A stretch of 64,000 bases of DNA from Bispira polyomma (Eukaryota), in NCBI GenBank assembly GCA_965649765.1, contig OZ287752.1, positions 87,234,001-87,298,000 on the forward strand. Reading direction: 5' to 3'. Below the pieces are notes generated by a model. The model searched no databases. It was not told the origin of the DNA and saw only the letters and a program-made list of their open reading frames with translations. Below, one piece after another: positions 320 to 5,914 of the stretch; the first letter of the stretch is position 1; each line of letters opens with the position of its first letter. The translations under genes were made by a program, and so were the position numbers.

Positions 320-449
320 TCAGCTGATGAAGTCGCTGGCTGTGTGTGGAGTTAGGGCACAGAAAAGTGTTTTGCGGCATCCGGATGATCCGGACCGGAT
401 CCTGCCTTTATCTGGGTCTACAAGAAATTTGAAATGTCTCCGATCTTTC
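320..449 (-). CDS. Tentative terminal coding exon of the nested peptide gene
   Basis: tttgtacag|G gives a phase-compatible continuation KKDRRHFKFLVDPDKGRIRSGSSGCRKTLFCALTPHTASDFIS-TGA, with basic clusters and C-x5-C. The acceptor is weak; an alternative acceptor at 480 would end the protein after KTLP. Confidence 0.35.
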
Positions 450-1213
450 CTGTACAAACCACCCTTTCATGGAAGTGTTCTGCAGAACTACTAAAGGGAT
501 CATTCCACTATATGGTGCAAACTCATACCTTACCATATATATATATTAACACCTGTTCATGGCATTTTTCCCAGATTTTTAGATTTTAAGTTAGGAATTT
601 TCAAAATTGAGATTTTTCAGAATTTTTTAAATGTCAATATCTTATTACCTATTGGATTAAGTGACTTGAAATGTATTGTGGGCCTTTATAAAACCAGAGT
701 CATGCAATCGAATGCAATCTAAGGTCAGATTTGACCTGAGACCTTGGACTCAAAATCAAACTGGGATCATAGCAGTCAATTTCCAGTATTTTATATCATA
801 TCTCTAAAAGTATTACATAGAATACCACTAAACTAGCCAGTATCGGTATATGTTTGACAGGCTCAATAAACATACTGGTAATGTTATTATAAGAGAATGC
901 TTGACAGACAGATGCATCATGATAACACCACTAGCTGTCTCTTAATAACCCCATTGTGTATGGTAATATTTTGACATCAGTGAGAAAGGGTGCCAATTGT
1001 AAGGTATCGTGATTATAGTCTTTATAAAATTGTGATATCATGTGGATTTTCAATTTAACTTTTGTTTCAGAATAGTTACATTGAATAGCATTTAGGTTAG
1101 TGCTGAAGTTTAGTAATTTCAGACCCATACATTACAGTTGAAGGGAAACCATGGGCAAGTAGTGCTTCAAAATGTGAGTATTTCCTGAACTCAAACCCAA
1201 CGAGTTGGTGACC

Positions 1214-2398
1214 CAATCTCCTCCCAGTGTCAATGAATTCAGCTTAATCTCCTCCCAGTGTAAAAGAATTCAGCTTAATCTCCTCCCAGTGTCAATGAAG
1301 TCAGCTTAACCTCCTCCCAGTGTCAATGAAGTCAGCTTAATCTCCTCCCAGTGTCAATGAAGTCAGCTTAATCTCCTCCCAGTGTCAATGAAGTCAGCTT
1401 AATCTCCTCCCCAGTGTCAAAAAAAGTCAGCTTAATTTCCTCCCAGTGTCAATGAAGTCAGCTTAATCTCCTCCCAGTGTCAATGAAGTCAGCTTAATCT
1501 CCTCCCCAGTGTCAAAAAAAGTCAGCTTAATTTCCTCCCAGTGTCAATGAAGTCAGCTTAATCTCCTCCCAGTGTCAATGAAGTCAGCTTAATCTCCTCC
1601 CCAGTGTCAAAAAAAGTCAGCTTAATTTCCTCCCAGTGTCAATGAAGTCAGCTTAATCTCCTCCCAGTGTCAATGAAGTCAGCTTAATCTCCTCCCCAGT
1701 GTCAAAAAAAGTCAGCTTAATTTCCTCCCAGTGTCAATGAAGTCAGCTTAATCTCCTCCCAGTGTCAATGAAGTCAGCTTAATCTCCTCCCCAGTGTCAA
1801 AAAAAGTCAGCTTAATTTCCTCCCAGTGTCAATGAAGTCAGCTTAATCTCCTCCCAGTGTCAATGAAGTCAGCTTAATCTCCTCCCCAGTGTCAAAAAAA
1901 GTCAGCTTAATTTCCTCCCAGTGTCAATGAAGTCAGCTTAATCTCCTCCCAGTGTCAATGAAGTCAGCTTAATCTCCTCCCCAGTGTCAAAAAAAGTCAG
2001 CTTAATTTCCTCCCAGTGTCAATGAAGTCAGCTTAATCTCCTCCCAGTGTCAATGAAGTCAGCTTAATCTCCTCCCCAGTGTCAAAAAAAGTCAGCTTAA
2101 TTTCCTCCCAGTGTCAATGAAGTCAGCTTAATCTCCTCCCAGTGTCAATGAAGTCAGCTTAATCTCCTCCCCAGTGTCAAAAAAAGTCAGCTTAATTTCC
2201 TCCCAGTGTCAATGAAGTCAGCTTAATCTCCTCCCAGTGTCAATGAAGTCAGCTTAATCTCCTCCCCAGTGTCAAAAAAAGTCAGCTTAATTTCCTCCCA
2301 GTGTCAATGAAGTCAGCTTAATCTCCTCCCAGTGTCAATGAAGTCAGCTTAATCTCCTCCCCAGTGTCAAAAAAAGTCAGCTTAATTTCCTCCCAGTA
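1214..2398. repeat. Minisatellite with 95-bp higher-order unit (31+31+33 bp)
   Basis: aatctcctcccagtgtcaatgaagtcagctt monomers; the 33-bp variant recurs at 1401, 1496, 1591 and onward. Confidence 0.95.
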
Positions 2399-2687
2399 TG
2401 AATGAAGTAAACTTAAGGAATCTCTTTGGGGGACAAGGAGTTTACAAGAACCTTTTTAATCATGACAACATTTTAGACATTTCTAATGTAGCTCTAATAT
2501 TCAATGAAGTAATGTAGCGATCACGCTATCAAGTTCTGGCCACGTTTATTTATGCCAGACTACCCCCCCCCCCCCCCCCCACAAAAATAACGGCAGTCAC
2601 ATAAATACATTCAGGTGTGAAACCCCCCATCCCCACCCCAAACACACATACGCACAGACACACATACTCACGCACACACACACTTAC

Positions 2688-2854
2688 TTCTCATCCATCA
2701 TTTCAGGATGCCATTCACAGCATTCAAATAAGTTGTCTAGTTGTGAGATATCCATGCAGTGGATCTTTCTACATTGGCGGGAACCAATAGCGTCTGTAGT
2801 CGTAGTCATAGCAACCATGATACACAGTGTAACCAAGGTAGAACTCCACTGCAT
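2688..2854 (-). CDS. First coding exon of a candidate small secreted Cys-containing peptide precursor (antisense to CFAP44)
   Basis: Minus strand: tactttatatcccag|A ATG ... GAG AA|gtaagt followed by a GT-rich tract. Encodes MQWSSTLVTLCIMVAMTTTTDA-IGSRQCRKIHCMDISQLDNLFECCEWHPEMMDE (signal-peptide-like N-terminus, C-x4-C-x11-CC). Confidence 0.6.
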
Positions 2855-4039
2855 TCTGGGATATAAAGTACACAACCCCCTAAAAAGTACAGAGCAGACA
2901 CACACTATTGTAATACTGTTTTAGATTTTTGTAATTACTTAGCAATTCTCATGGCTATTCTGTTTACATCAAAAACCTGTCACATGAGTGAACCTCAGCT
3001 GTAAAATTTTGTGGTGGAAATCCATTGAAATTGTTTATGCTAGGAACTTATTATCTCACTATTTATCCCTTTGCCACATAGGAGTAAGGAATCCAAATGT
3101 TGCCACTGTATCTGAAATTTGCCACCCCTTAACATGTAAACCAAATCAACCAAAACTAGCGAAAAATAACTGGAATTTAGGTAAGTAACCCAAATTAGTC
3201 GCACAAAATAGCTACTCCATACAATATCGGATATGAAAATAGCCCTTACAATACCTAGTCCAAGGCTCCACACCCCATTTTGTACACACAGATCCATGAA
3301 TATGCCAGTATTAGTCAGGTCCGTAGTCCATTGTATTCACATTTGTACTCGGCACATATTATATCTACCATTTCTATTTGGTATTCAGAGCCCTAATTAA
3401 ACCCGTTCATGCCTGCTCAAGTACAGCCAACCAGTCAAACTGTGAGTGGCTTGAGTATGACCCCATGTATCAACATTACCAAGGTTCTTTAGCCTGATAC
3501 TGGGGATTTGAAGGCCTTAATTGGTAGAGGACACTGAGATCTTAACTGGTCATCTGGGACACTATGTATCTATCTGTACCTGGTCCCCCTAGGCTGGGAT
3601 CAAAGTCAGGTCCTATGCATTCCTAAGTGAGTATCCTGGCCACTATTAGGTACATGATGACCGAGATATAAACAGAAAAACTATAATCACAGTGACACCT
3701 CTATTTCTGAACTAGAAGTTAAATTTATCATTTAGGTATTTGATTTCAAGAAACTCATTCAACACTCTTGAACTGCTTTCCTCAAACTGTTGTCAGATAA
3801 CTGTTGTCAGATAGGCCAGGGATTTACTATCGTGACCATACAGTGGAACCACTAGTATCCAAAAATTATATTCTCAAAATCTATTTTTCTTTTAGTTTAA
3901 GGAATTTTAAGATTCACTAAAGTAAACTGACGCACCATTTTTTTTATTTTTCACAAACATATTATTTTATTCTCCCTAACTTACTGACAGCGATGTGAAA
4001 CCCCAATGAATTGTTACCGTTAAAGGCTTCCTTGGGGTA

Positions 4040-4430
4040 CATTCATTACCTTCTAGAAGTAAATTGTCACCAATAAGATGGTACCTTTATTACTTTACAC
4101 AAATAATTTGTCACTATGAAGATGGTTTCTTTATTGTCTTCTAAAAGTGAATTGTCACCATTAAGATGGTACCTTTCTTACCTTACACAAGTAATTTGTC
4201 ACCATTAAGATGGTACCTTTATTACCTTACACAAATAATTTGTCACCATTAAGATGGTACCTTTATTACCTTACACAAATAATTTGTCACCATTAAGATG
4301 GTACCTTTATTACCTTACACAAATAATTTGTTACCATAAAGATGGTTCCTTTATTACCTTGCACAAATTGTCACAATTAAGATGGTACCTTTACTACCTA
4401 AATACAAATAAATTGTCAATATTAAGAAAT
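4040..4430. repeat. ~45-bp minisatellite
   Basis: gtcaccattaagatggtacctttattaccttacacaaataattt units. Confidence 0.9.
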
Positions 4431-5914
4431 TGTTTATGACCTAACCCCAATAAAGTGCCACTATTTAGAAATCTTTTACCCCCTTCCTAAGGTGCCTTAC
4501 CTGTAGGTTGAGTCCGCCGATGTTTCTAAATCCGCCTTTCCCACTGACCCGCCCTATTATACAGCCGCCAGATAAGCATTCCTGCGTCATTGCTTTCAAT
4601 ATCCCAATCTCTGTATTCTCTTACAAACTACACACTCCGATTAAATGTCATCCATTTTTCATTTGCTGGTGGAATATTTGAGAAGATAAAAGGCTATCTG
4701 ATAAATTAACCACACAACTTGGGGTCGTGTGAATGGCAGGATTTTAATAAGTTCCCGCCACTGAAACCCCCCTCCTTCCCCCATCACACCCCTACCCGCC
4801 TCTTTTGATTAGCTGTCTGTTCTGTGCGACAGTTTGAAAACTTTTATATAAATTCCAGTTTTAAACTTCTTCGCTTGTTATGTTGGTTTTTTTTTCTCAT
4901 TTCTTTTTGTCAAGAGTGAAATTGCTTAGTCAATTTTGTATCAGGAGTTTGTCAACTTAAAACACAGAATGATAGAAAAGAGCTGTTAAAAAGAGTAATG
5001 GAGTATTCATTAAAGGGAAGAGTATAATATTCAGTACTCATTAAAAAGAAAGAATTTAATATTCAGTACTTGAGTGCTTCTTAAAAGGGAAGAATGTTGA
5101 TTTTCAGTACTTGTGTACTCATTAGAGTGGAAGAATATAATCTTCAGTACTCTAGTACCCATTAAAGTAGAAGAATGTAATAATAATCAGTTCTCGTGTA
5201 CCCATTAAAGGGTAAGAATGTTAATCTATAATATTCACTACTTTAATGAGTACAAATTCAGAAATAAAAGTGGTTCTATTTTCTGACCCTTACTTTCTCA
5301 GTTGACTGTAATTTACTCGGCACTAGACGGGACATCCTTACTAATTGATAGAGACCAACTTAAGGTGTTTTTTATGTATTTTCACACTGGAAGAAGTAAT
5401 GTTTTAGATGGTCTAAGAGTAGTTGTCAATACTAATAATACGACTCATTTTAGCCTTATTAGAAAATCACTACTTTGAAAATAGCCAACAAATATTGTTT
5501 CCTCAGGTATAAAATTGAAAAATAACCCCCATTAATCCCCACCCCCACCCCCCCTCACCGCAGATAAAGGTCCACCTTAAAGTTGCTGTCCTCTATCCTA
5601 TTGTAAGGGACTTGTTGACTGTGTTATGTATGAGTTATTAGTGTTCTGATGAGGTTACCTGGCTGGTGGGGGGGTGGGGGGGTGTTAGATAAGATCAGTT
5701 CATTTGGGCATGGATTGGGGTGACGGATGGAGTCGCTCATTGATAAGAAGCCCTTATTAAGAGGGTGGACTGTGATTGGGGGGGTTAGAGGGGGGTGGGG
5801 ACCCTCACTAATGACACGGTTTCACACACCGTCCACACTTAACCACCAGCCCCCTCACCTGCCATTAAAAGGTCGCCACTCTCTAAGTTAAAGGGGACAG
5901 GTGTTTGTGCTTTG

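Follow-up and report, generated by a model that had tools for sequence, protein, structure and literature searches.

Two tandem antisense genes predicted to encode secreted six-cysteine peptides within a CFAP44 intron of Bispira polyomma

We analysed a stretch of 64,000 nucleotides (nt) of Bispira polyomma DNA (contig OZ287752.1, positions 87,234,001 to 87,298,000; hereafter the window), in which a small minus-strand gene (gene 1) very probably lies nested in an intron of the plus-strand gene CFAP44, together with a tandem paralog (gene 2) beyond the left edge. Positions are window coordinates extended leftward, so that the base preceding the window is numbered 0 and x stands for contig position 87234000+x; the whole region considered, of 214 kb, is the 64-kb window plus 150 kb to its left. 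A preliminary description, made from the letters of the window alone, had proposed a gene, antisense and nested within an intron, whose product would be a small and probably secreted cysteine peptide assignable to no family. The present analysis supports that proposal, with a non-coding exon 1 ending at 4501. The paralog, the true last exon and the U12-type donor of the host intron all lie left of the window edge.

Gene models and duplication

The features of the locus are collected in Table 1. For exon 2 the minus-strand signals are as first described: a CAG acceptor, the exon 2855-2688 and a GTAAGT donor from 2687, in phase 2, and the 55-codon translation quoted for it is correct. The ATG does come immediately after the acceptor, but at 2854, one base past it, and not at 2855. 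Upstream, the donor CAG/GTAAGG at 4501/4500 is present and has an equivalent in the paralog. A TATA motif, TATATAAAAG, likewise exists at 4850-4841 but is less likely to be the core promoter, since it is not kept in the paralog and six ATGs follow it before the 4501 donor; the TATA-like box TATAATAG is the likelier candidate. GATA-type (WGATAR) sites at 4704, 4699, 4689 and 4575 recur in the paralog, four in 360 nt where 1.02 would be expected (Poisson p = 0.02). We take these four shared sites to be compatible with gut or coelomocyte expression, a weak link.

Table 1. Predicted features of the two peptide genes and of their host intron (- and + in the third column denote strand)
Feature	Position	Strand	Remarks
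CFAP44 upstream exon, outside window	-13613..-13477	+	human CFAP44 residues 99-135; weak, E = 0.089
CFAP44 downstream exon, end approximate	6812..6975	+	human CFAP44 137-189, E = 1.3e-18; in frame with upstream exon
CFAP44 host intron	-13476..6811 (in window 1..6811)	+	20,288 nt, GT-AG, phase 2; holds both peptide genes
U12-type branch motif TCCTTAAC of host intron	6792..6799	+	branch A 13 nt before end at 6811; 3′ AG 6810-6811
Gene 1 proximal promoter, predicted	4560..4860	-	promoter plus exon 1: 341/389 aligned columns identical between copies; 2 genome copies found
TATA-like box TATAATAG, likely core promoter	4561-4554	-	identical in both copies; no ATG before 4501 donor; start site inferred
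Gene 1 exon 1, non-coding	4501..4535	-	donor CAG/GTAAGG; 5′ end inferred
Gene 1 exon 2	2688..2855	-	ATG 2854, 55 codons + 2 nt, 4/6 mature cysteines, phase-2 donor
Gene 1 signal peptide (predicted; codons 1 to about 22, with uncertain cleavage site)	2789..2854	-	hydropathy; 16/22 residues identical between copies
Gene 1 intron 2, in-window part	1..2687	-	continues 16 bases beyond left edge to true exon 3
Gene 1 exon 3, outside window	starts -16 (contig position 87233984)	-	last two cysteines, stop -65..-67, AATAAA -179..-184
Last exon of the preliminary description, rejected as main last exon	320..449	-	inside intron 2; no paralog counterpart, weak acceptor
Gene 2 (tandem paralog), outside window	exon 1 donor after -11947; exon 2 -12484..-12660, phase-2 donor	-	inside same CFAP44 intron
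Gene 2 exon 3, outside window	from -13270; stop -13322; AATAAA -13425	-	76-residue predicted product
Gene 1 duplicated unit, upstream part	4861..5859	.	blocks alignable to gene 2 unit, identities 73-85%

Searching the genome with exon 2 produced one further match, the paralog 15 kb to the left (expectation value E = 1.3e-7, 57% identity). Its predicted layout equals that of gene 1 in promoter block, three exons, splice sites, phase, 3′ untranslated region (UTR) and polyadenylation signal. Because exon 3 and the 3′ UTR of gene 2 match -215..40 (82% identity over 259 columns), the last exon of gene 1 is predicted to begin at -16, behind a pyrimidine-rich acceptor, and not at 449. The exon 449-320 of the preliminary description does have an open, phase-compatible frame, and splicing to it would give a 98-residue prohormone with dibasic sites. 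As the main product this is hardly credible, though it may exist as a minor alternative form: the acceptor of the 449 exon is weak and purine-rich, and nothing corresponds to this exon near the paralog or in the rest of the 214 kb (best other match 14 nt, E = 0.4), whereas the exon at -16 is conserved with its stop codon, UTR and polyadenylation signal. Since 449-320 is rejected as the last exon, the KKDRR cleavage-like sites and the second CRK-containing loop once attributed to the peptide fall outside the main product.

Both strands of the 214 kb were also scanned for exons combining an acceptor, an ATG, a hydrophobic start, at least three cysteines and a donor. The two matches were exon 2 and the paralog exon; the same scan of 20 shuffles gave three matches in total, and its thresholds had been set after the genes had been seen. 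The paralog is the stronger evidence for a gene, and the nested antisense gene is very probably real. No credible copy beyond the two was found in genome and region searches, including loose tblastn and nhmmer runs over the 214 kb, and two degenerate patterns gave two matches each with none in controls; genome-wide copy counts are lower bounds. A candidate third copy on C13 (E = 5.3) contains a stop and was rejected. Rfam gave no matches in the loci of gene 2 (L002) and the spacer (L003) or in L025. Contigs from three runs of one study, none recorded as RNA, fall on 2690-4030; they leave 2690-2914 uncovered, a non-diagnostic gap, and their joints are only repeat-derived.

Comparison of the host intron with itself places the duplicated units at about -13473..-9225 and -227..5859 (about 4.3 and 6.1 kb), with a 9-kb spacer or insert between them at -9227..-228. 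The 3′-end homology of gene 1 extends (-242..-192 versus -13490..-13440) into an apparent decayed copy of the U12 donor, which suggests a starting point for the duplication right at the beginning of the host intron. The spacer contains inverted CA/GT satellite arms (-9227..-8389 versus -2913..-2037 and -504..-234); both of its ends coincide with the duplication junction, and it resembles a foldback element. Open reading frame fragments between the arms look like the reverse transcriptase of a long interspersed nuclear element and a tyrosine recombinase. Intron 2 of gene 1 includes a higher-order tandem array of 95-nt units at 1215-2416 (12.7 copies, 98% matches); the same intron of gene 2 is only about 600 nt long and is without the array. 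In intron 1 of gene 1, high-copy dispersed repeats occupy 3082-3210 and 3365-3634, where many of the run contigs match.

The CFAP44 host intron

Named animal CFAP44 proteins longer than 1,400 residues align in 23-31 plus-strand pieces across the region. The nesting proposed earlier is borne out by CFAP44 exons on both sides of the peptide genes, at -13613..-13477 and from 6812. U12-type introns have the 5′ splice site consensus RTATCCTTT and a branch site, TCCTTAAC, close to the 3′ end. The donor of the host intron, GTATCCTTTT at -13476, fits a U12-type 5′ splice site, and the branch motif is found near the other end (Table 1). On the plus strand of the 214 kb there is one other GTATCCTT, at -13330. 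At this place, 146 nt inside the intron, the CFAP44 strand has a second string resembling a U12 donor, GTATCCTTAC. This string is formed by the reverse complement of the gene 2 stop region and is lacking in gene 1; chance is its probable origin, although a cryptic minor donor is conceivable.

Human and mouse CFAP44 are both entered among the minor-intron genes (PMC6717393). Directly before the minor donors given there stand TGT (human) and CAA (mouse), bases that would agree with L-V and N, respectively, if placed at the codon of human residue 136; the present intron interrupts that codon in phase 2. Because the three exon bases before the mammalian donors fit in this way, the host intron probably corresponds to the minor intron of mammalian CFAP44, as judged by those bases rather than by an exon map. 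The CFAP44 minor intron would apparently extend from mammals to a lophotrochozoan, where it has reached a length of 20 kb with two antisense genes inside. Gene 2, on the other strand, has its polyadenylation signal 46 nt away from the minor donor, and the locus allows a test of the effect of antisense transcription on minor-intron splicing.

In a quick tree of CFAP44 (21 rows, made with sequences of at least 1,400 residues and containing no named annelid), the window protein falls outside a 13-row clade of bivalves and gastropods (support 100), with no resolved place among the other lophotrochozoans. Several CFAP44 exon ends are embedded in tandem arrays that repeat the exon edge with its splice site, namely 6941-7305 (36 nt x 10), 9030-9451 (56 nt x 7.5) and 9965-10209 (129 nt x 1.9), and partial exon duplicates are seen at 12508-12687 and 47555-47761. 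In locus L004, positions 1-185 hold an upstream plus-strand exon that encodes a repetitive stretch rich in Glu and Gln and probably belongs to the N-terminus of CFAP44, and about 5284-5330 a further short exon. Elsewhere, at C7 48557639-48568253, three matches to the erythrocruorin linker chain (PF16915) exceed the Pfam cut-off, on both strands and within 11 kb; none of 14 control genomes had any. Taken together, the tree and the linker matches point to an annelid as the probable host and make a mollusc unlikely.

Predicted peptides, divergence and possible functions

Spliced in script, the predicted products have 72 (gene 1) and 76 (gene 2) residues. The mature cysteine spacing is C-x4-C-x11-CC-x10-C-x8-C in gene 1 and C-x4-C-x14-CC-x10-C-x8-C in gene 2, and gene 1 has one extra cysteine within its leader. 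The best 9-residue hydropathy is 2.89 in gene 1 and 2.17 in gene 2. Across eight choices of cleavage site the isoelectric point (pI) is 4.56-4.75 and the charge about -3 to -6, with 8-11 Asp/Glu in the mature part. Neither peptide has a propeptide, a conserved dibasic site or an amidation signal (there is no Gly directly before a terminal basic site); such dibasic pairs as occur are RK at 29-30 in gene 1 only and a terminal KK in gene 2 only. By these features the scaffold would be a member of the secreted disulfide-rich class that matches none of the families compared here. An acidic, cysteine-rich and predicted secreted protein might also belong to mucus, tube, cocoon or cuticle, as a structural or metal-binding constituent with cross-links between its cysteines. 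We consider this improbable, given that the peptides lack repeats and low-complexity sequence, that a fixed spacing of six cysteines suits a folded monomer and that the variable loop described below would go unexplained.

Homologues were sought with exon 2 only, as one or two sequences and without exon 3; the two-paralog profile, of two sequences and 58 columns, is weak, so blanks do not prove the family unique. A word-indexed search of 5.8 billion proteins with the two-paralog alignment gave no homologue of 30-102 residues, and none among 31 candidates of 103-2000 residues; nor did HMMER find a true homologue of exon 2 in 1.84 billion representatives. Two HMMER matches (E = 2e-4 and 4e-4) were rejected as long repetitive proteins without the cysteine pattern. 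Pfam returned no family for four peptide segments or for the rejected exon 449-320, the four matches among PDB sequences (E = 0.29-1.7) were all unrelated, and none of 271 pattern matches in metagenome contigs was confirmed. In the ESM Atlas, used for gene 1 only, the nearest clusters were all venom-peptide families, with scores of 0.76-0.78; this is a lead only. The literature searches made, of listings and the openings of abstracts, showed no title describing these peptides. The HPEMM motif is absent from the neuropeptide supplements searched, in the parts available, for Platynereis (PMC3890597) and for nemerteans, brachiopods and phoronids (PMC8557429); files 2 and 4-7 of PMC3890597 lay outside that search, and a Platynereis relative could be missed.

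These results bear on the possibility that the peptides are internal hormone- or neuropeptide-like ligands, secreted whole in the manner of eclosion hormone and acting on a receptor of the host. The predicted signal peptide placed directly before a six-cysteine peptide, the strongly conserved promoter and 3′ UTR and the low copy number would all suit such a ligand. Yet the two large protein searches found no homologue, the HPEMM motif is missing from the supplements just named, all full-length Platynereis precursors have a basic cleavage site (PMC3890597), and the paralogs share only 4/11 residues of the mature N-terminus. We therefore regard a hormone as decidedly unlikely, and the neuropeptide or prohormone architecture of the preliminary description, with no conserved dibasic site and with exon 449-320 dropped, is not supported.

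AlphaFold models of the exon-2 segments, which hold four of the six cysteines and are without the last two, are helical, with two to three short helices. Foldseek with these partial models gave no matches; in VIA-align, gene 1 had none of 48,161 chains at Z >= 2 and gene 2 five of 48,161 at Z 2.0-2.3, which is uninformative. Helical models for both segments, at low confidence, together with the acidic charge, the six cysteines and the presence of two divergent copies, recall water-borne or gamete-associated protein pheromones or recognition ligands of the Euplotes kind. In Euplotes pheromones only the cysteines and the leader are kept, the fold has three helices and the last helix is the most conserved (PMC9542385), and here it is the C-terminal half that is most conserved. 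Against this, there is no match among PDB sequences to the solved structures of the pheromone class, the peptides lack a pro-segment and the analogy is one of physical properties only; a role of this kind is unlikely. A more elaborate version would make the pair the founders of a new helical three-disulfide ligand family, serving as an annelid protein pheromone or self/non-self recognition signal. Their antisense transcription, with its end no more than about 46 nt from the ancient U12 donor, would also hold back the splicing of the minor intron in CFAP44, making the secretory and ciliary programmes mutually exclusive in each cell. This combination is very improbable.

Divergence between the two copies is informative about constraint. 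Identity is 126/137 columns in the 3′ UTR, 57/66 nt (16/22 residues) in the leader and 64/84 nt from CC to the end, but 15/33 nt (4/11 residues) in codons 23-33, the mature N-terminus. The loop between the second and third cysteines (Cys2-Cys3) differs in length and its identity is at chance level (6-9/33 nt). Six non-coding blocks, pooled, are identical at 714/903 positions, a figure that understates neutral divergence since the blocks were chosen by BLAST; against them (189/903 differing), codons 23-33 have diverged more, at 18/33 nt (p = 2e-5). Codon counts, made with the Cys2-Cys3 loop left out and small in every class, show changes at 6/39 replacement versus 6/9 silent sites in exon 3 (Fisher p = 0.004) and at 13/71 versus 7/13 from CC to the end (p = 0.011). 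The mature N-terminus has a higher share of replacement changes, 14/26 as compared with 13/71 from CC onward (p = 0.002). All six mature cysteines are kept although three of their six codons differ silently. The C-terminal half is thus under purifying selection, and the N-terminal half is fast-diverging. Positive selection was considered and is not claimed, the ratio of replacement to silent divergence (dN/dS) being below 1 in every block.

If the locus were a duplicate in decay or silent, without a functional peptide, an N-terminal dN/dS near 1 would be accounted for. It is nevertheless quite improbable, since both copies retain intact frames, canonical splice sites, polyadenylation signals and six cysteines at a non-coding divergence of about 20% or more, and purifying selection on exon 3 is significant.

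The explanation that we favour, tentatively and with a probability of about 0.45, is that the two tandem antisense genes encode secreted, unprocessed, acidic six-cysteine peptides of about 50-55 residues, likely lineage-restricted effectors of a defence or toxin type that bind a changing target. Each gene would be transcribed from its own TATA/GATA promoter, against CFAP44, and the gene 1 transcript spliced from 4501 to 2855 and from 2688 to -16, probably by the major spliceosome. After cleavage of the signal peptide the whole peptide would be secreted, with three disulfides and a mostly helical fold. The constrained C-terminal half may form the disulfide-tied scaffold, the variable Cys2-Cys3 loop may set target specificity, and the region from Cys1 to Cys3 would be what touches the target, itself changing with time. 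With a net charge of about -3 to -6, cationic membrane lysis is disfavoured and binding to a protein target (receptor, channel or enzyme) is favoured. In mussel CRP-I, antimicrobial peptides and neurotoxins, duplication has likewise been described as leaving the signal region conserved and the mature peptide hypervariable (PMC4558851). In all likelihood the nesting is incidental, and CFAP44 and the peptides are probably unrelated in function.

Several points weigh against the idea of defence or toxin effectors. The hydrophobic core of the leader is short and in gene 2 contains a Glu, and confidence in the helical models is low (two aligned sequences; predicted local distance difference test scores of 65 and 70; predicted template modelling scores of 0.34-0.35). 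Over the 11 alignable N-terminal codons dN/dS is 0.73, since divergence at silent sites is just as high in these codons, and an identical picture would result from relaxed constraint or from gene conversion in the flanks. Only two copies were found, as against at least 67 CRP-I loci in the mussel (PMC4558851), and the annelid BRICHOS antimicrobial peptides and perinerin described in PMC6780910 are cationic where the present peptides are acidic.

Comparison with known systems

The locus would add a disulfide-rich scaffold that, with the long loops of its C-C-CC-C-C array and its acidic charge, falls outside all the families compared. Its combination of a conserved framework and a variable loop suits it to synthesis, structure determination and activity screens. 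Lineage-restricted secreted cysteine peptides are not rare as a class, since others of unknown role have been described (PMC8398477); they and antisense nested genes are both common classes, and the interest of the locus is accordingly moderate.

MgCRP-I of Mytilus (PMC4558851) offers a likeness in being secreted, as is predicted here, in its C-C-CC-C-C order, in duplication, in a narrow taxonomic range and in having no known function. It also combines a conserved leader with a hypervariable mature region, for which the corresponding identities here are 16/22 and 4/11 residues. The differences are considerable. Loops in MgCRP-I follow C(X3-6)C(X1-7)CC(X3-4)C(X3-5)C, as compared with 4, 11/14, 0, 10 and 8 residues here. 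A pro-region of about 15 residues ends in KR or RR, whereas in the present peptides the first mature cysteine is residue 28 with no dibasic site before it. The mature peptide is basic (pI 8-9.5), unlike those described here. Four exons, with the whole array on the last, contrast with three predicted exons and an array split 4+2 by a phase-2 intron, and the site-specific conservation of cysteine codons reported for CRP-I is not seen (three of six codons differ).

The same cysteine order is found in conotoxins of framework VI/VII and in spider knottins (inhibitor cystine knots). Knottins and conotoxins have shorter loops, a propeptide between signal and mature peptide and a β-sheet fold. The loops here are much longer, the exon-2 models are helical (at low confidence) and there is no Pfam match; a propeptide is absent, as Cys1 follows the possible cleavage sites by about 5-12 residues and a single Arg at 26 is the only conserved basic processing site. 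The A-chain motif of the insulin superfamily is CC-x3-C-x8-C, differing from the CC-x10-C-x8-C of these peptides, whose exon 2 also lacks a Pfam match.

Among annelid secreted peptides, the lophotrochozoan CCWamide and CLCCY precursors, in their Platynereis versions (PMC3890597), share the CC doublet, but their propeptide carries a KRR site and is followed by eight cysteines, and CCWamide has an amidation signal; the present peptides have six cysteines and neither of these features. The annelid BRICHOS antimicrobial peptides have a pro-domain of about 100 residues and a cationic hairpin (PMC6780910), in contrast to precursors of 72-76 residues with a net negative charge. Er-1-type pheromones of Euplotes (PMC9542385) are likewise small, with six cysteines and a variable mature part behind a conserved leader, and form a three-helix bundle with three disulfides, where for the present peptides helicity is predicted at low confidence from the exon-2 segments; they belong to a ciliate, derive from a pre-pro precursor and have no detectable sequence relationship to the present peptides, which makes the resemblance an analogy only.

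As to the arrangement of the genes, the literature search made on genes nested in minor introns showed no title on them, by which rarity is not shown. Among nested human genes, two-thirds run opposite to their host and the majority bear no relation to it (PMC4394429). A parallel in arrangement is given by OMG, EVI2A and EVI2B in NF1 (PMC4394429), which are also independent coding genes lying antisense within a host intron; the present locus differs from these in that the host intron carries U12-type signals.

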